From: Planctomycetota bacterium
GTDB lineage: Bacteria > Planctomycetota > Phycisphaerae > Sedimentisphaerales > Anaerobacaceae
NCBI GenBank assembly: GCA_043824065.1
Contig: JBDRTM010000428.1
Span: 1 to 15,798 of the forward strand
Reading direction: 5' to 3'
Length of the DNA stretch: 15,798 nucleotides
Made by a program: the position numbers and the translations under genes. Below the pieces are notes generated by a model. It saw nothing but the letters and a program-made list of their open reading frames with translations. It ran no database searches and was not told where the DNA came from. Shown here piece after piece: positions 3,740-15,296 of this stretch; within the stretch, counting starts at the first letter, position 1; every line of letters starts with the position of its first letter.

Positions 3740-4974
3740 AAAAAGCAAGTATCGTCAGCATCGGCAATGAGCTCCTCAGCGGTCAAACAGTAGATACTAA
3801 CGCCGCATACTTGAGTGGCGAACTGCTTTCAATCGGCATACCCGTTGTCAGCTCTTATACCATCGGCGATGATATGGATGCAATTGTACGGGCATTTAAT
3901 CTGGCAAGCACCGATGCTGATATAGTCCTGGCTACCGGCGGGTTAGGCCCGACCGACGATGATTTGACCCGCCAGGCGTTCGCAAAGTTCCTCGGAACCG
4001 AGTTACAATTAAAGACCGACCTTCTGGACAGGATTCAGAATTTTTTCGCTAAGCGGAATTTGCAGATGTCGGATAAGAATAAGATTCAGGCATACATACC
4101 AGCCGGCGCAAAGGCGCTTGCAAATCCTCTTGGCACGGCCCCCGGCATTATGGCCGAAGCAAAAGGAAAACTGATTGTTGCTTTACCTGGTGTGCCGTCG
4201 GAAATGAAGCGAATGTTCGCCGAATCGGTCCTTCCGGAACTTCAGAGGTTCGCCGGCACGCAGGCTGTGGTGGTGCGAAAACTAAGATGCTTCGGAACAG
4301 GCGAATCGAACATCGCTGAATTACTCGGCCCGCTTATGCAAAGAGGAAGGAACCCATTGATCAACTGCACGGCCAAGTATGGTATAATCACCCTGACAAT
4401 TACAGCAACCGTAAAAGACAAAGATAAGGCCCATCAAATGGCCGAAAAAGACGAAAAATTGCTGCGTAATAAGCTCGGAGAGCTGGTTTACGGCACAGGG
4501 GAGCAAACTTTAGCCGAAGTGGTCGGCGAAAAATTAGCCCGGGAAAAAATGACTATCGCCGTAGCCGAATCCTGCACAGGCGGCACCTTAGCCAAGCTGC
4601 TGACCGATATCCCCGGAGCAAGCAGATATTTCACGCACGGATGGATTACTTACAGCAACACCGCAAAGACCGGCGAACTGGGCGTACCTGCCGATTTGAT
4701 TGAAAAATACGGCGCTGTCAGCGAACAGGTCGCTCAGGCTATGGCCCAGGGCGCCAGAACAAAAGCCCGAACAGATTTTGCAATTAGCATAACCGGCATA
4801 GCTGGCCCAGCCGGCCGAGCTGAACAAAAACCCGTAGGACTGGTATATATCAGTGTGGATTCCCATAATGGCTGTGATACCAAACGCTGCCGTTTTTCTC
4901 ACGATAGACGCTACATACGCCTTAGAGCGGCACGTACTGCTCTGAATATGCTCAGATTGAAATTGAACATTTGA
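3736..4974 (+). CDS. cinA: CinA family protein (MoCF-type N-domain plus PncC nicotinamide-nucleotide amidohydrolase C-domain)
   Basis: The N-terminus MKKASIVSIGNELLSGQTVDTNAAYLS is typical of CinA. The C-domain motif AESCTGG is present. The 412-aa length fits the family. Confidence 0.93.
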   Translation: MKKASIVSIGNELLSGQTVDTNAAYLSGELLSIGIPVVSSYTIGDDMDAIVRAFNLASTDADIVLATGGLGPTDDDLTRQAFAKFLGTELQLKTDLLDRIQNFFAKRNLQMSDKNKIQAYIPAGAKALANPLGTAPGIMAEAKGKLIVALPGVPSEMKRMFAESVLPELQRFAGTQAVVVRKLRCFGTGESNIAELLGPLMQRGRNPLINCTAKYGIITLTITATVKDKDKAHQMAEKDEKLLRNKLGELVYGTGEQTLAEVVGEKLAREKMTIAVAESCTGGTLAKLLTDIPGASRYFTHGWITYSNTAKTGELGVPADLIEKYGAVSEQVAQAMAQGARTKARTDFAISITGIAGPAGRAEQKPVGLVYISVDSHNGCDTKRCRFSHDRRYIRLRAARTALNMLRLKLNI

Positions 4975-5035: not shown

Positions 5036-6772
5036 ATGGCAAAGCAGCGCAAACGTTTAGGTGAAATACTTTACAAGGCAGGGCTTGTAGAAAAGCAGGC
5101 TCTCATCAATGCCATTAAAACTTCCAAGAGCAATAACAAACGGCTTGGCCAGATATTGCTCGAACTTGGCCTGATAGATGAAGATGCTCTGACCAAGGCA
5201 ATCGCCAAGCAGTTTGACTTACAATACATAGATCTGGACAAAACTACCATCCCGCAGGATGCCGCTAAGTTGATTCCACAGGAGCTTATGAAAAGGCATA
5301 ATGTCCTGCCTCTCGGTATGAACAACGGCAAATTGAAAGTGGTTATTTGCGACCCCCTCGACCTGGAGATGATGGACGCAATTCGGTTCCGATTGAATAC
5401 CGAGCTGGAGTGTTGTGTTGCAAACCCTACGAAGATTCGCTCCTACATCCAGGATTCCTTCGACCAGACACAAAAGGAGGAAAGCGACAGGCTAAGGCAT
5501 AGCATCGACGCAACTGCCGCTGAGCTTGCCGAGGTCGGCCACGAGTTACAGGCCGAAGCACTCAAGGCACAAGTTGCAGGCGGGGATGATGACGCACCGA
5601 TTATCAGATTGGTAAACCTGATAGTGGATAATGCCTATTATATGCGGGCCAGCGATATACACATTGAACCAATGGAAGATAGGGTACGCATAAGATACCG
5701 CATCGACGGCGTCTGTATGGAAAGAGACAATATTCCCAAGAATATGCAGGCACCGTTGACTACCCGCCTCAAAATCCTATCCGGTATGGATATTGCCGAG
5801 AAAAGGTTGCCGCAAGATGGTCGTATTAAACGTGTGATAGGAGGACAGGACATCGATTTTCGTGTCTCGGCTCTGCCGGGCAACCACGGAGAAAGTATAG
5901 TGCTGCGACTTTTGCGCCGCGATGCCGTAAACGTCGGTATTGAGTCTTTGGGCTTTGAACAGGACAATTATGAGCAATTCCATAAGATAATCAAAAGACC
6001 GAACGGCATCTTTTTGGTTACAGGCCCCACCGGTAGTGGCAAAACCACAACCTTATATGCTGCTTTGCAGGAGCTTAACAAGCCGGATAAGAAAATCATC
6101 ACCGCCGAAGACCCCGTCGAATACAACTTCGACGGAATGAATCAGTGCCAGGTCAAAGAAGATATCGAATTGACTTTTGACAGGATTTTAAGAGCGATGT
6201 TGCGACAGGCCCCCAATATCATACTCATCGGCGAAATCCGTGACGGCGTCGTCGCTGATATCGCAATCCAGGCCGCACTTACCGGTCACCTCGTTTTCAG
6301 CACTTTGCACACTAATGACGCACCAAGCGCAATTACCCGTCTCATAGATATGGGCGTAAAGCCCTTTCTCGTAGCAAGCTCCATACAGGCCATTATGGCA
6401 CAGAGACTTGTAAGAATCATTTGCAAAAAGTGCAAGGTGGTGGACGAAAATCCGGACCCATATCATTTACAGTCATTGAGTATCACACCCGAAGACCTCG
6501 AAAAAAGTCCCGTTTATAAAGGAGCAGGTTGTAGTCAGTGCCAGCATACCGGCTACAAAGGACGTATCGCCATATTCGAAATGTTTGAAATGAACAATGA
6601 GATAAGAGAGCTGGCCTTTGCAAAGGCTCCTACTACCGAGTTGAGAAAGGCTGCAAAAGCAAGCGGTATGAGAACCCTGATGGAAGACGGAAAGCTCAAA
6701 ATATTCAAAGGAACAACCACGCCGGCTGAAGTCGTCAGAATAACCCAGACCGAAGGTGCGGCGGTCAGTTGA
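5036..6772 (+). CDS. pilB: Type IV pilus assembly / type II secretion ATPase (PilB/GspE family) with N-terminal MshEN/T2SSE_N domain
   Basis: Walker A GPTGSGKTTT is present. The tetracysteine motif is CKKCK...CSQCQHTGYKGR. An N-terminal tandem of RLGxxL...G motifs is also present. 578 aa. Confidence 0.93.
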   Translation: MAKQRKRLGEILYKAGLVEKQALINAIKTSKSNNKRLGQILLELGLIDEDALTKAIAKQFDLQYIDLDKTTIPQDAAKLIPQELMKRHNVLPLGMNNGKLKVVICDPLDLEMMDAIRFRLNTELECCVANPTKIRSYIQDSFDQTQKEESDRLRHSIDATAAELAEVGHELQAEALKAQVAGGDDDAPIIRLVNLIVDNAYYMRASDIHIEPMEDRVRIRYRIDGVCMERDNIPKNMQAPLTTRLKILSGMDIAEKRLPQDGRIKRVIGGQDIDFRVSALPGNHGESIVLRLLRRDAVNVGIESLGFEQDNYEQFHKIIKRPNGIFLVTGPTGSGKTTTLYAALQELNKPDKKIITAEDPVEYNFDGMNQCQVKEDIELTFDRILRAMLRQAPNIILIGEIRDGVVADIAIQAALTGHLVFSTLHTNDAPSAITRLIDMGVKPFLVASSIQAIMAQRLVRIICKKCKVVDENPDPYHLQSLSITPEDLEKSPVYKGAGCSQCQHTGYKGRIAIFEMFEMNNEIRELAFAKAPTTELRKAAKASGMRTLMEDGKLKIFKGTTTPAEVVRITQTEGAAVS

Positions 6773-6800
6773 ACCAAATATAGTTATTGAGGATTCTTAA

Positions 6801-7952
6801 ATGGCAACAGTCAATATGGACAGATTACTCGAAGCCTGTGTTGCACAGGGGGCTTCCGATTTACATATTGTTACCGGCCGCCCGCCTGTATTAAGGGTAG
6901 ATGGTTCGCTCAGGTCACTGGAAACCAAGGTGCTCGAACCTGATGATACCACCGCTTTAATGAAGAGCATCACACCTGACCGAAATCAACAGGAGCTTCA
7001 GGAAGAGGGTGGTACCGACTATGGTTTTGCTTATGGCGATGTGGCAAGATTTCGCGTCTCTGTTTTTCGACAGAAAGGCAATATCTCCATTGTCTTGCGG
7101 CGTATCCCAACAAGTATTATGACCTTTGAGGAGATAGGTTTGCCTAAGATTTGTGCCGCTCTGTGCCGCAGGCCCAGAGGGATGTTCCTGGTTACCGGAC
7201 CAACCGGATGTGGAAAAACTACCACACTTGCTTGTATGATAAACTACATCAACGAAAATTTTGACCGCCACATTATAACCGTTGAAGAACCAATAGAATA
7301 TTATCACCCACACAAAAAATCTATTATTAATCAGCGGGAAGTCGGCGTTGATGTCCCCAGCTTTGGCGAGGCACTAAAACGCGTTTTGAGAATGGACCCT
7401 GACGTGATTCTGGTAGGTGAATTGCGCGATTTGGAAACAATCGAATCAGCCGTCAGGGCCGCCGAGACCGGACACCTTGTCTTCAGCACAGTACACACTA
7501 CAAGCGCCGCAGGAACCATTACCAGATTGATTGACGTCTTTCCCGTGGACCAGCAAGAGCAAATTCGAATTCAGTTAAGCAGCAATTTGATAGCCGTTCT
7601 CAGCCAGGCACTTTTACCTTTAGCTACCGGCAGGGGAAGAATTGCTGCTTATGAGTTTATGGTTGTAACGCCTGCAATTGCAAATCTTATCCGCGAGAAC
7701 AAGACTTACCGAATCGATTCCAGCATTCAAACCGGCAAAAAGCTCGGTATGCAGCTTCTTGATGAGCACCTCTGGAAACTATATGATACCGGCATAATCA
7801 ACCTCGAGGAAATGATCGACAAAGGACGTCAGCCCGGCGCATTGCAGGACAAGGCTATGGCCAAAATAGAGGCCTTAAGGGGAAAGCATAGAACCAGGAA
7901 GAGAGAGGCAAAGAAGGAAATGGACGATTTAGGAACTATCTTAAGGACCTGA
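6801..7952 (+). CDS. pilT: Type IV pilus retraction ATPase PilT (twitching motility)
   Basis: Walker A GPTGCGKTTT is present. The PilT signature is AIANLIRENKTYRIDSSIQTG. SD GAGGA lies at 6790-6794, 29 nt after the pilB stop. The protein has a roughly 35-aa basic C-terminal extension. Confidence 0.93.
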   Translation: MATVNMDRLLEACVAQGASDLHIVTGRPPVLRVDGSLRSLETKVLEPDDTTALMKSITPDRNQQELQEEGGTDYGFAYGDVARFRVSVFRQKGNISIVLRRIPTSIMTFEEIGLPKICAALCRRPRGMFLVTGPTGCGKTTTLACMINYINENFDRHIITVEEPIEYYHPHKKSIINQREVGVDVPSFGEALKRVLRMDPDVILVGELRDLETIESAVRAAETGHLVFSTVHTTSAAGTITRLIDVFPVDQQEQIRIQLSSNLIAVLSQALLPLATGRGRIAAYEFMVVTPAIANLIRENKTYRIDSSIQTGKKLGMQLLDEHLWKLYDTGIINLEEMIDKGRQPGALQDKAMAKIEALRGKHRTRKREAKKEMDDLGTILRT

Positions 7953-11583: not shown

Positions 11584-12408
11584 ATGCCGTTAGAGCAGAG
11601 AGATTTGAGCAGAATGCTGGAGACAGCTATCGTGGCAGCACACCTGGCCGGGCAGCGGGCGATGGAAGAAATCAATTTCGTCAAGGCCTCAGTGAAGAAC
11701 GCCACCGAATTGGTAACCCAGACCGATGCCCGATGCCAGAAGATAATCATCGACCGAATCAAGGAGAACTATCCCGACCACGGCTTTATCGCTGAGGAAG
11801 GTGACCAGGGTAAGATTTTCAAACAACCGCCACGAGGCGACCAGCAGCTCTTCTGGGCCATCGACCCGATAGACGGAACAAACAATTTTGCACATCGCAT
11901 GCTTTTATTCGCCATCAGCATTGCAGTACTCTACGAGGGCGAACCGATTGTAGGTGTGATTTTCGAGCCGGCCACGGATTCAATGTTCACTGCTGTCAAA
12001 GGCGGCGAGGCACAATTGAACAGCAGGCGAATAACCGCAAGCCAGGAGACGATGGATAAATTTTCAAGCATTGGTCTGGACAGTCATTTTGATAATGGTG
12101 TGCCGTCCTGGACCTGTGAAATTATGCAGCGGACAAGATTCCGAAACTTGGGCACAACCGCCCTGCAATTGGCATACGTGGCAAAGGGCGGCCTTATAGC
12201 CACTATCGCCTCCGACCCGAAGATATGGGACATAGCAGCCGGGACCGTAATCGCCGAGGCCGCCGGAGCCATCGTTACCGATTGGCAGGGTGGAAAAATC
12301 TTTCCCCTCGATTTGGAAAGCTATGAAGCTCAGCAATTTCAGGTAATAGCGTCTAACAAAAAAGTCCATCCCAACTTACTCGAACTTCTAAATCGTGATC
12401 GTGAGTGA
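11584..12408 (+). CDS. suhB: Inositol monophosphatase family protein (SuhB/IMPase-like)
   Basis: Both IMPase signatures are present: WAIDPIDGTNNFAH and WDIAAG. 274 aa. Confidence 0.9.
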   Translation: MPLEQRDLSRMLETAIVAAHLAGQRAMEEINFVKASVKNATELVTQTDARCQKIIIDRIKENYPDHGFIAEEGDQGKIFKQPPRGDQQLFWAIDPIDGTNNFAHRMLLFAISIAVLYEGEPIVGVIFEPATDSMFTAVKGGEAQLNSRRITASQETMDKFSSIGLDSHFDNGVPSWTCEIMQRTRFRNLGTTALQLAYVAKGGLIATIASDPKIWDIAAGTVIAEAAGAIVTDWQGGKIFPLDLESYEAQQFQVIASNKKVHPNLLELLNRDRE

Positions 12409-12497
12409 AAATTAAAAATTAAAGAGCGAAGCGACAAGTAAAAACCCAAACTGGCATGCCGGATGCTCGATATTAGCAGCTAAAGAAAAATAAAAAA

Positions 12498-12525
12498 AGC
12501 CATCAATGTACTTACACTGATGGCT
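12498..12525 (-). terminator. Rho-independent terminator, strong on the minus strand and weaker on the plus strand
   Basis: The stem pairs AGCCATCAATGT with ACACTGATGGCT (12 bp, 1 mismatch). On the minus strand it is followed by TTTTTTT (complement of A-run 12492-12498). On the plus strand it is followed only by TTTAT. Confidence 0.75.
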
Positions 12526-12552
12526 TTATGATAATCTAAGATTATCACATTT

Positions 12553-12618
12553 TTACTTTTTCTTCTTTGCTGTTTTCTTCTTGGTCGCCTTTTTCTTTGT
12601 GGCTTTCTTTTTTGCCAT
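12553..12618 (-). CDS. Unlisted 21-aa polylysine micro-ORF (MAKKKATKKKATKKKTAKKKK)
   Basis: Start ATG at 12616-12618 and stop TAA at 12553-12555, 66 nt in frame. SD GGAGG (12626-12630) lies 7 nt upstream of the ATG. The terminator hairpin begins about 28 nt downstream. 13 of 21 residues are Lys, in a repeating KKK(A/T)(A/T) pattern. Confidence 0.6.
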   Translation of the reverse strand: MAKKKATKKKATKKKTAKKKK

Positions 12619-12687
12619 TTTTAGGCCTCCATGTAACTAAAAAAAATTGGTTGTTAGTAAGTGGGCTAAAACCCACCAAATCCGCTT

Positions 12688-13947
12688 TTATTGGTCCCGA
12701 TTTTTTAAAAGCTCTAAATTTTTGTCGATGTTAAATAGCAAGAATACTCGTTTCATATAAAAACTTCTAATCAAGTTTTTTTTTATCCCTTCCAACTGGC
12801 GTACTAAAAACTCGGCCAGCAATAATGTGCGTTGCAGGATGCCGATTCGCTGCACTGCTTCCTGTGGTGTGTACAGTTGCTTCGAAATTGGGCCGAGGCC
12901 ACACACAACCCTGGTAGATTCTGGTACAAGGCCGGCAATAGTTGGCCATACAGATGATTCCTGGTCGAGGGGGATGTCCCATTTGTCAGCAACTTCTTTT
13001 AGATCTCTTGCGAGTTTCTGATTTCTACGGCTAATCTTCATAGGAAGGCGGTCTGAAAGCATTTCGAGTTCCCATTTCGCTTCACCTTTACCTAAAATGT
13101 CCCGCATCTTCTTTTCTACCGCGTCAGCAAGTCGTTGCTCTGGGTAGCTAAGTAGCAGAGTAACAACTATCCGATGAGGCAAAAGCATAGGAAAGCTTGT
13201 CGTCTTTATATTTGAAGCAGCCACCGCAATGCGTTCTTTTCTGGAGGACAGTTTCGATAGTTTCTCAATCTTAGCACATACCCAATGGAGAGCTTCGGGG
13301 CTTTTATTAGCTTTTCCAATGCGTCTTGGGTAAGTTTCTACGCGTAAAACGTATTTCCGTTGTCCCCGACGCCGGGTAACAATTTTATTTCCTGGATTTC
13401 CGGCTCTCAAAACTAAAACTTGAATGGCTTGCTGTAGCTCCTCTTCATTGTTGACGATTCTTACGCCAAAGGATACCGATTCGTTTTTGGGCTTGACAAT
13501 TAAAGGGTATATCAGATCACAAGTCATGTTCTCCAACGAATCCACTACAGTGAAATCCGGTGTCGGCAGACCATGCTGCCTAAATATTGTTTTCGCGACT
13601 ACTTTATCCAGAGCCATACCGTGAGCAAGCGGCCCCGAACCTACATAAGGTATGCCAACCATCTCCAAAATACTTGGCACATGTGTATAGCGAGCCTGTC
13701 CTTGAATTCCATACGAAAGATTAAAAACCAAACCCGGTTGCTCACCTTTGAGAACCCGTGGCATAAAATCTTCGAGTTTGTTGATAAGGTCTTTGTCCCC
13801 TTCGATTGCCTTTACCTGGTGCCCACCGGCTTTTAGGGCATTGGCAATTCGTTTAATGGTATTCTGGCCTATTCTTTCCTTGTTGGGAATTCCAAACAGG
13901 TTGATTACATTCTGAAAATCGTGGTTGTAAACAATAGCAATTTTCAT
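12688..13947 (-). CDS. Chimeric protein: Ddl-type ATP-grasp N-terminal half (about aa 1-178) fused to an M20-peptidase-like dimerisation and C-terminal half (about aa 183-383)
   Basis: The N-terminal part is MKIAIVYN...GIQGQARYTHVPSILEMVGIPYVGSGPLAHGMALDKVVAKTIFRQHGLPTP...YPLIVKPKNESVSFGVRIVNNEEELQQAI, which is D-Ala-D-Ala-ligase-like. The C-terminal part aligns by eye with CPG2-type M20 enzymes. VTRRRGQRKYVLRVETYPRRIG corresponds to ...V.V.GK..HAG. GLGPISKQLYTPQEAV...LLLAEFL corresponds to GLGP.G...HT..E.V. It is one intact 419-aa ORF. Confidence 0.8.
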   Translation of the reverse strand: MKIAIVYNHDFQNVINLFGIPNKERIGQNTIKRIANALKAGGHQVKAIEGDKDLINKLEDFMPRVLKGEQPGLVFNLSYGIQGQARYTHVPSILEMVGIPYVGSGPLAHGMALDKVVAKTIFRQHGLPTPDFTVVDSLENMTCDLIYPLIVKPKNESVSFGVRIVNNEEELQQAIQVLVLRAGNPGNKIVTRRRGQRKYVLRVETYPRRIGKANKSPEALHWVCAKIEKLSKLSSRKERIAVAASNIKTTSFPMLLPHRIVVTLLLSYPEQRLADAVEKKMRDILGKGEAKWELEMLSDRLPMKISRRNQKLARDLKEVADKWDIPLDQESSVWPTIAGLVPESTRVVCGLGPISKQLYTPQEAVQRIGILQRTLLLAEFLVRQLEGIKKNLIRSFYMKRVFLLFNIDKNLELLKNRDQ

Positions 13948-14019: not shown

Positions 14020-14562
14020 TTAATATGGTTCCTCGTTATATGATTCATCATAGCTATCATCATCTTGTTCCTCGTCGAAATGTTCGCTATCTTCCGATTC
14101 ATCAATAAAATCTTCTCTGGCAAAAGTACCTTTCTCAAACATACTGGCACATAAAACGCAGTATCTGGCCCATGGAATTGCGTCCAATCGCCCCTTTGGG
14201 ATCGGTTCGCCATTGCCTTCACAAATCCCGTATGTTTCATCTTCTATACGTTCCAGTGCGGCGTCGATTTCCGAGATAAGTTTTCTCTCGTTGTCCATCA
14301 GTCCCAATGTATTTTCTATCTCGTAATTATCACTGCCAACGTCAGCCATATGGATTGGCAAATTTGATAAGTCACTTCGTTGCCTATGAAGGGTTTCGGC
14401 TTCCATGCAGGTCATATTGCCCAATATCTCGTTTCTCTTGGCCAGCAATATAGCCTTGAACTTCTGTATTTCGGCTGGCATCAAGCTGGTTTTGCTTTTT
14501 CGTTCTTCTTTCATTGTAAGTCCAGTGAATACAAATAGATTGCAATCTCCGGGGTATCGCAT
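14020..14562 (-). CDS. DksA/TraR family protein with degenerate zinc finger and polyacidic C-terminal tail
   Basis: The coiled-coil region includes ...ADVGSDNYEIENTLGLMDNERKLISEIDAALERIEDETYGICEGNGEPIPKGRLDAIPWARYCVLCA, matching the family pattern YG.CE.CG..I...RL.A.P.A..C..C. The true start may be ATG 14514 (MKEERK...). Confidence 0.85.
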   Translation of the reverse strand: MRYPGDCNLFVFTGLTMKEERKSKTSLMPAEIQKFKAILLAKRNEILGNMTCMEAETLHRQRSDLSNLPIHMADVGSDNYEIENTLGLMDNERKLISEIDAALERIEDETYGICEGNGEPIPKGRLDAIPWARYCVLCASMFEKGTFAREDFIDESEDSEHFDEEQDDDSYDESYNEEPY

Positions 14563-14588: not shown

Positions 14589-15233
14589 TCATCGTCCAAG
14601 GAATGCACATAAGCCCTTGACAAAGACCCTTCTGAGTGGTTTTACACTTGTATCGATCTCATCGGCTGTCATGCCTATCATGGCAAAAGAGAAAAAGCCA
14701 AAAACAAATCCTGCTACCGCACATGCCAGACGGCGGACTTTCAATGGGTTTATCCTTGGAGATAGGTATTTTGAGATATTCTGTTCAATTTCTCCCAGAT
14801 AACGTAAATATGGTTCTTCCAGTTCATCCAGTGTATCAGACTGAAGCTTTAGTAATAACTTGCCCTGGAAAAGCAAAAGGAACTCTTCCTTGGAATCAAT
14901 ATAAAACTCATAATGGACATTCAATAAATGTTCCAGCATCGCTTCCAGGGTTTCTGGGGCAGAATCATACGAGCGGATATACTCGATAAGATGGTTAACC
15001 GCTTCTTCTACCAGTATGACGACAATTTCTTCTTTATCTGCAAAATGCTGATAGAGAGTTCCCTTGCCCAGGTCAGCTTTTTCCGTGATATCCTCGACGG
15101 TAGCCGCATCAACGCTTTTTTCGCTGAAAATATCGAGGGCAGCTTTTTTGAGTTTTTTCCGAGTTCTTTTAGCTCTCTTTTGCGACCTACTTTTCTCAGA
15201 TTTCCTGGTTTGGGCCTTCATAAATTTGACCAT
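14589..15233 (-). CDS. TetR/AcrR family transcriptional regulator
   Basis: The HTH region is KKAALDIFSEKSVDAATVEDITEKADLGKGTLYQHFADKEEI. The track start at 15281 is a TTG lying upstream of two operator-like palindromes. ATG 15233 or ATG 15221 is a more plausible start. Confidence 0.85.
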   Translation of the reverse strand: MVKFMKAQTRKSEKSRSQKRAKRTRKKLKKAALDIFSEKSVDAATVEDITEKADLGKGTLYQHFADKEEIVVILVEEAVNHLIEYIRSYDSAPETLEAMLEHLLNVHYEFYIDSKEEFLLLFQGKLLLKLQSDTLDELEEPYLRYLGEIEQNISKYLSPRINPLKVRRLACAVAGFVFGFFSFAMIGMTADEIDTSVKPLRRVFVKGLCAFLGR

Positions 15234-15259
15234 TAAGTCAATATTGACCAAATGGTCAA
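15226..15259. promoter_or_regulatory. Two tandem 16-bp palindromes (putative TetR operators)
   Basis: TTGACC-ATTA-AGTCAA lies at 15226-15241 (5/6 symmetric). TTGACC-AAAT-GGTCAA lies at 15244-15259 (perfect 6-4-6). They are 18 bp apart centre to centre and overlap the 5' end of the TetR ORF. Confidence 0.6.
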
Positions 15260-15268
15260 GAAAAAAAT

Positions 15269-15296
15269 TTGACTTTTGCAAAAATATTATTATTAT
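15269..15296 (+). promoter_or_regulatory. Putative promoter for the divergent Ser/Thr kinase gene
   Basis: TTGACT (15269-15274), a 16-nt spacer, then TATTAT (15291-15296), within a (TAT)n-like AT tract. The choice of -10 element is ambiguous. Confidence 0.35.

Follow-up and report, generated by a model that had tools for sequence, protein, structure and literature searches.

Ligases of the ATP-grasp fold work via an ATP-dependent acyl-phosphate. The described proteins closest to the gene examined here are the D-Ala-D-Ala ligases (Ddl; PF07478, TIGR01205, and NF002378), which have this fold, and the dimeric M20 metallopeptidases of the CPG2/DapE/ArgE type (PF01546 with the lid PF07687), typified by carboxypeptidase G2 (CPG2). 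Single chains that unite a ligase with a hydrolase are also on record, since the glutathionylspermidine/trypanothione synthetase-amidase is a ligase-hydrolase fusion of small-molecule amide metabolism (PMC2427367). A review of pseudopeptidases does not treat M20 (PMC11266112). Here, we analyze a 15,798-nucleotide stretch of DNA from a Planctomycetota bacterium (contig JBDRTM010000428.1; hereafter, the window), in which an open reading frame (ORF) of 419 codons carries the beginning of a Ddl-like ATP-grasp domain and the end of an M20-like domain. This architecture is most likely a broken copy of a two-domain protein and not a new enzyme design. Specifically, we propose, with a probability of about 0.7, that a single gene has recently suffered a deletion and that the ORF is the resulting loss-of-function allele.

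The ORF list and the translation place the 419-codon frame, from ATG to TAA, on the minus strand at positions 12688-13947. A first-pass annotation of the sequence had correctly described the frame as intact without giving its strand. The encoded protein is identical to NCBI MFH1883785.1 (“hypothetical protein ABIL62_13895”), which comes from a Planctomycetota metagenome-assembled genome. Residues 1-177 (13417-13947, minus strand) represent the ATP-grasp N-domain and the opening strands and helix of the central domain, and the NCBIfam and Pfam matches stop at residues 176-178, in agreement with the boundary of about 178 that had been drawn in the annotation. The NCBIfam D-Ala-D-Ala ligase models cover residues 17-177, corresponding to profile positions 12-164 of 305 (NF002378, E = 3.6e-24), with a score of 85 bits that falls below the 243-bit cutoff. 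The Pfam model PF07478 aligns with residues 125-177 (profile positions 5-67 of 204) and does not match the ORF end to end. In an alignment with a provisional sequence of Escherichia coli DdlB, which served for this and all later DdlB comparisons, K152 and S159 pair with DdlB K144 and S151.

The remainder of the protein belongs to the M20-like part. Residues ~186-303 (13039-13392, minus strand) form an intact lid (dimerization) domain, delimited by the secondary structure of residues 515-632 in the model of P0002, the nearest relative of the ORF product. Residues 304-390 (12778-13038, minus strand) are, according to the family alignments, the final segment of the M20-like catalytic domain. In a profile search, no M20 model matched the ORF product even at E < 1. 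The earlier reading of this part as an M20 lid followed by the last catalytic segment is thus upheld only via relatives, through the PF01546 matches of two of them (P0050 and P0111) and through the likeness of the family profile and the P0002 model to the CPG2 structure 1cg2.

A search of 5.8 billion proteins retrieved more than 1,700 homologues, which are single proteins of about 715-725 amino acids (aa); among the top 120, almost all have a length of 714-732 aa. The 12 nearest protein clusters (83-95% identity) all measure 718-730 aa, and over 100 further matches of ~714-732 aa cover PF07478 in full. In these proteins, which are annotated as “ATP-grasp domain-containing protein”, a Ddl-like ATP-grasp ligase is present in full, and an M20 (CPG2-like) domain comes after it. 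The ORF product is collinear with both halves of this ~720-aa family (whole-protein E = 4e-237) and is 419 aa long, against ~714-732 aa and a continuous linker in full-length members. The homologue search suggested by the first-pass annotation therefore returned neither a recurrence of the same architecture in relatives nor separate ddl-like and M20 genes, but a single ORF. Because close relatives carry both domains in one continuous ~720-aa ORF, the window ORF (12688-13947, minus strand) is, to judge from the sequence comparisons, an internal in-frame deletion allele of one natural fusion gene and not a fusion of two genes.

The extent of the deletion is given by P0002 (721 aa). The ORF product aligns with it at 95% identity in two blocks, which pair ORF residues 1-178 with P0002 residues 1-178 and ORF residues 173-390 with P0002 residues 502-719. 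At the DNA level (BLASTN), window positions 15798-13417 correspond to positions 451-2835 of the related locus L001, and window positions 13422-12601 to L001 positions 3817-4636. The two flanks of the junction are collinear, in the same orientation, and 92-93% identical to L001. Relative to L001, exactly 987 nucleotides (nt), or 329 codons, are missing in frame (P0002 residues 178-506). BLASTN and a three-way alignment of the junction locate the joint at 13417-13422 (minus strand), within a 6-nt microhomology, CAAGTT (codons Q176-V177). This hexamer is common to the window junction and both L001 breakpoints, and 10 of 13 bases are alike in the wider context. The rest of the ATP-grasp domain does not continue in any of the three minus-strand frames between 12300 and 14000, and tblastn with the deleted 329 residues found nothing better than E ~1 elsewhere in the window. 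The absence of the catalytic C-terminal half noted in the first-pass annotation thus extends to the other frames and to the rest of the window, and a frameshift that hides the ATP-grasp remainder is ruled out. An exact search with the 27-mer across the junction in metagenome and GTDB-genome contig collections found it in no other contig, and an exact look-up of the protein among contigs gave no match.

The deleted block holds the remainder of the ATP-grasp central domain, the whole C-terminal domain, the interdomain linker, and ~165 residues from the N terminus of the M20-like catalytic domain, among them its one surviving His ligand. The Mg/ATP ligands of the family (R272, D274, E287, and N289, equivalent to DdlB R255, D257, E270, and N272) lie inside this block. 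Of the Ddl-like part, only the first ~55% is left in the window ORF, without any Mg ligand. The surviving pieces are the ATP-grasp N-domain with a few central-domain elements, one strand, the complete lid, and the last segment of the M20-like catalytic domain.

In the intact proteins, the ligase half is complete. Full-length members fit the whole PF07478 model (E = 1e-39; profile positions 28-204 of 204 for P0002), and the family profile matches Ddl crystal structures (E = 1e-39). P0002 also aligns with positions 13-303 of the 305 positions of NF002378, scoring 181 bits against the 243-bit Ddl cutoff. Because even the intact parent scores under this curated cutoff, the family is Ddl-like and not Ddl. 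The family keeps the equivalents of DdlB K144, E180, K215, R255, D257, E270, and N272. At the omega loop, the Lys215 equivalent is retained and the position of Tyr216 is occupied by Thr in P0002 (residue 231, in YEDKT); most family members have Thr there, yet the column is not conserved in the family alignment. A Thr at this position argues against canonical D-Ala-D-Ala specificity. Given the conserved Ddl positions and the established chemistry of ATP-grasp enzymes, the parent protein is apparently an active ATP-dependent ligase that would act through an acyl-phosphate, with a specificity other than that of Ddl. Among the curated NCBIfam models, none reaches its cutoff for the family and none covers the fusion or its C-terminal half, and we found no description of the fusion family in the searchable full-text literature.

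The M20-like half comprises the C-terminal ~390 residues of the parent. P0050 and P0111 score 25.2 and 24.8 bits, respectively, against PF01546 (gathering score, 24.6) over residues 419-711, and the family profile matches CPG2 (1cg2) with an E value of 1e-9. Modeled with AlphaFold, P0002 adopts a two-lobed M20 fold and resembles 1cg2 (Foldseek; template modeling score, 0.73; E = 1e-18), as well as PahZ2 (7ljh), carnosinase CN2 (4ruh), and Dug1p (4g1p). We mapped the metal ligands of CPG2 onto the family with a HMMER alignment. Only the equivalents of H112 and of the general base E175 are kept family-wide. D141 is replaced by Leu (Ser or Cys in some members), E176 by an invariant Gly, E200 by Arg, and H385 by Tyr, so that the five di-zinc ligands (H112, D141, E176, E200, and H385) read H, L, G, R, and Y across the family. 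In addition, the H-A-G motif of the M20 lid is R-[IL]-G throughout the family. With four of its five metal ligands replaced throughout the family, the M20 domain of the parent is predicted to be unable to hold a di-zinc center. Conserved R453, R510, and Y688 would form a pocket in the parent. We suggest that it is an ancestral pseudo-peptidase domain that has been under strong purifying selection.

These family-wide substitutions bear on two readings in the first-pass annotation. The R-I-G in place of H-A-G and the Tyr in place of the last Zn-ligand His are indeed present in the window ORF, as R209-I210-G211 in the lid domain and as Y359 in GLGPISKQLYT, and R181 (at the E200 position) and Y359 (at the H385 position) are the only CPG2 metal-ligand positions left in it. 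The two motifs had been taken for catalytic residues lost by this particular ORF. Their conservation across the family rules out a catalytic-residue decay specific to the window ORF. Similarly, the idea of a maintained pseudoenzyme fits the M20 domain of the full-length family and does not apply specifically to the truncated ORF.

The fusion family is present in 356 GTDB species representatives from more than 12 phyla, at 55-60% identity. Its hosts include Planctomycetota, Desulfobacterota (with the cultured Desulfonema magnum, NZ_CP061800.1, locus L086), Zixiibacteriota, Verrucomicrobiota, Nitrospinota, Nitrospirota, Latescibacterota, Acidobacteriota, and Scalindua. A GGT-like gene (PF01019) adjoins the family gene in 67 of 80 species-representative loci and lies directly downstream of it in all but two, and an FGase-like gene (PF05013) is usually next. 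Most of the 80 loci (L003 to L008 and L015 to L092; e.g., L006:7001-11463) thus have the cassette order ATP-grasp/M20-like, GGT-like, FGase-like. The three cassette proteins are ~50-70% identical between phyla, and the GGT-like protein has no obvious signal peptide. The PADLOC defense-system models matched neither the parent protein nor the GGT-like and FGase-like proteins, and a literature search found no description of the three-gene cassette. A Pfam scan and a homology search located no GGT or FGase gene in the window. The clade to which the window belongs (L001, L009 to L011, L013, and L014) is likewise without these two genes and has TetR and DksA/TraR genes upstream instead.

The 3′ end of the window ORF also departs from that of its relatives. 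Alignments of the 3′-end DNA, together with the sequence itself, reveal a run of nine A residues (12776-12784, minus strand) where the sequence exceeds its counterpart in L001 and L009 by 2 nt. The ancestral stop codon, TAG at 12767-12769, is bypassed through the resulting +2-nt frameshift. Translation instead continues into a 29-aa read-through tail (NLIRSF...NRDQ) that ends at the TAA stop (12688-12777, minus strand; family alignment columns 721-749), and this tail has no counterpart in any relative in the family alignment.

The AlphaFold model of the 419-aa product has a mean predicted local distance difference test score (pLDDT) of 52 and a predicted template modeling score of 0.37. Only residues ~190-320, corresponding to the lid, are predicted with confidence (pLDDT, about 72-92). 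The junction (residues 174-190) and everything past residue 323, which includes the remnant of the catalytic domain, score below 50, as do ~56% of all residues. In comparison, the model of the full-length P0002 has a mean pLDDT of 69, with values of mostly 75-94 in its M20 half; its residues that match window residues 304-390 score about 71-91, with a dip to about 51-54 around residues 681-700. Because the D/E/N Mg ligands are absent, established ATP-grasp chemistry predicts that the 419-aa product would form no acyl-phosphate. From the model and the missing ligands, we infer a product that has no catalytic activity and is for the most part misfolded.

We propose the following origin of the ORF. 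The parent would be a protein of ~720 aa in which a carboxylate-amine ligase of the Ddl-like ATP-grasp type is followed by an M20 (CPG2-like) domain without catalytic activity. Codons 178-506 may have been lost by illegitimate recombination, or by slippage during replication, between two copies of CAAGTT that lie 987 nt from each other, with the frame kept across the deletion by chance. The 2-nt length difference at the A run would be a second change, which bypasses the normal stop. The product, presumably unable to bind ATP or to form an acyl-phosphate, would be a non-functional remnant encoded by a gene that is probably still transcribed from the unit led by the TetR and DksA/TraR genes.

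When the window is compared with L001, dN/dS (the ratio of nonsynonymous to synonymous substitution rates) is 0.10 in the left block and 0.14 in the right block. These values are like those among intact orthologues (0.08-0.13), and a dN/dS check proposed in the first-pass annotation therefore reveals no decay. With L009 and L010 as outgroups, 5 amino acid changes are unique to the window lineage and 10 to L001. Neither dN/dS nor the relative-rate comparison shows a sign of relaxed constraint, a result that does not separate the rival explanations. Because no relaxation is seen, the deletion, if real, is very recent.

Several observations weigh against a recent loss-of-function allele. The allele is a singleton, represented by one protein record and one contig and with its junction 27-mer found nowhere else in the metagenome and GTDB-genome collections. 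Positive signs of pseudogene decay are absent as well, since the frame is open throughout and dN/dS is not raised. Furthermore, shortened forms can persist, as in-frame-shortened alleles occur in the lineage of L012 and L093 in several independent assemblies. In L012 (ENA assembly, L012:319-3388) and L093 (JGI, L093:1597-4483), all three cassette genes are shortened in frame: the ligase to 554 or 493 aa, the GGT-like protein to 359 aa (versus ~537 aa), and the FGase-like protein to 105 aa (versus ~227 aa). The same cluster has two further members, from ENA and JGI/Logan assemblies. L012 and L093 are nearly clonal (dS = 0.011) and differ by one more in-frame deletion of 61 codons. The shortened cassette alleles thus recur across independent assemblies, and all cassette deletions in this lineage stay in frame.

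The singleton status and the lack of relaxed selection would also be expected if the genome has an intact gene of ~2.16 kb and the contig skips 987 nt through a chimeric read path or a mis-join; moreover, the nearby 2-nt difference sits in a homopolymer and could be a sequencing error. We consider such an assembly or library artifact unlikely. The sequence common to the breakpoints is no longer than 6 nt (10 of 13 bases when the context is widened), which is presumably far below any assembler k-mer, so that a collapse of repeats is not expected. Both sides of the junction are collinear, in the same orientation, and ~92% identical to the same relative, and a random mis-join would be in frame only 1 time in 3. 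More doubtful still is that the 419-aa protein is a maintained, shortened pseudoenzyme with a non-catalytic role, for example, as a lid-domain dimerizer that binds or regulates a full-length paralogue or partner. This would account for the intact, in-frame ORF, the retained upstream genes and downstream terminator, the complete and confidently predicted lid, the dN/dS values of 0.10-0.14, and the recurrence of in-frame-shortened ligase, GGT, and FGase genes in ENA, JGI, and Logan assemblies. However, the low dN/dS mostly reflects history prior to the deletion, neither the architecture nor the junction occurs in a second genome among those searched, and the near clonality of L012 and L093 leaves their case without proof of long-term upkeep. 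The low pLDDT over more than half of the residues, including the junction and the whole C terminus, and the tail without a homologue also speak against a maintained protein. Finally, the first-pass annotation suggested that an in-frame deletion had joined two adjacent genes, a ddl-like ligase and an M20 peptidase, as the ORF begins like one domain family and finishes like a different one. The in-frame deletion stands; the two adjacent genes do not, and we regard this origin as extremely improbable. It is refuted by the relatives: all those examined, with the 356 GTDB species representatives among them, carry the two domains in one uninterrupted ORF of 714-732 aa, joined by a conserved linker.

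Upstream of the deletion allele, on the same strand, are a gene for a DksA/TraR-type zinc-finger protein (14020-14562; PF01258 and PF21157) and, before it, a TetR-family regulator gene (14589-15281; PF00440). This TetR and DksA/TraR order is kept in L001, L002, L005, L006, and L009 to L011. In L005/L006 (L005/L006:3641-6106) and in L009 (L009:795-3243), polyamine-pathway genes, namely a pyruvoyl arginine decarboxylase, an agmatinase/arginase-family gene, and a deoxyhypusine-synthase-like gene, lie divergently upstream of the TetR, DksA/TraR, and ligase genes. These neighbors may hint at the substrate of the ligase.

About 70 nt past the truncated gene begins a small Lys-rich ORF of 21 codons (12553-12618, minus strand; MAKKKATKKKATKKKTAKKKK), preceded by GGAGG at 12626-12630. 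Homologous Lys-rich ORFs of 20-26 aa occupy the same place after the full-length gene in L010, L011, L013, and L014, all of which belong to the clade without GGT and FGase. The small ORF is probably cotranscribed with the main ORF, and its product might be a small basic protein, or it might serve the ligase as a substrate or partner. A terminator-like hairpin with a 14-bp stem followed by a T run (12496-12527, minus strand) closes the transcription unit, and a matching hairpin is found in L010 and L011. Similarity to L001 (and L002) ends at window position 12601, 6 codons into the small ORF. Beyond this point come unrelated small ORFs in L001 and, in the window, a gene of the inositol-monophosphatase family on the opposite strand (11584-12408). 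Position 12601 is a rearrangement breakpoint near the deleted gene.

A broader, quite unlikely scenario would make the parent cassette a cross-phylum pathway that makes and recycles a gamma-glutamyl- or N-acyl-glutamate-type amide metabolite, with in-frame-shortened alleles, like the window ORF and those of the L012/L093 lineage, kept for a non-catalytic lid or dimerization role. In this scenario, the Ddl-like ligase with its conserved dead M20 domain would work with a GGT-like Ntn hydrolase of the cytoplasm and with an amidohydrolase of the FGase-like kind, and the non-catalytic role in the clade of the window could involve the cotranscribed Lys-rich micro-ORF.

Farther away on the plus strand, a HepT-like toxin gene (PF20797; 2315-2731) overlaps by 8 nt an 89-codon ORF upstream of it (2053-2322). 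The 89-codon ORF is probably the MNT-type antitoxin of the HepT-like toxin; of this pair, only the HepT half was checked. Two tandem genes for T2SSE-family ATPases, one PilB/GspE-like with MshEN (578 aa) and one PilT-like (383 aa), are found at 5036-7952 (plus strand); they are ordinary and have no relation to the truncated gene.

Read as a deletion remnant, the 419-codon ORF is an annotation trap, with its long open frame and two recognizable half-domains, and it illustrates that an intact ORF is not by itself proof of a functional architecture. The ORF itself is ordinary, and the main residual interest lies in the uncharacterized parent family and its conserved cassette. Being strongly conserved and without a description that we could find in the literature, the family is a tractable target for assigning a new ligase function.

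Compared with known systems, the N-terminal half of the parent is like Ddl (E. coli DdlB, 2dln/1iov; Pseudomonas aeruginosa DdlA and DdlB, 8evx/8evy) in its profile, its full PF07478 coverage, and its conserved positions. It differs from Ddl in the ~390-aa M20-like domain fused at its C terminus and in a gene neighborhood that is not a cell-wall cluster. Its C-terminal half resembles CPG2 (1cg2) and other dimeric M20 peptidases in having a catalytic domain interrupted by a lid/dimerization domain; the window ORF is without the N-terminal ~165 residues of the M20 domain. The glutathionylspermidine/trypanothione synthetase-amidase and GshAB (3ln6) are similar to the parent, by analogy only, in combining an amide-forming ATP-dependent domain with a domain of hydrolase ancestry in one chain. 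The Ddl-like domain of GshAB weakly matches the parent family profile, and the neighborhoods of some relatives include gamma-glutamyl and polyamine genes. In those proteins, however, the partner fold is CHAP or GCL, whereas in the parent it is M20 and is predicted to be inactive.

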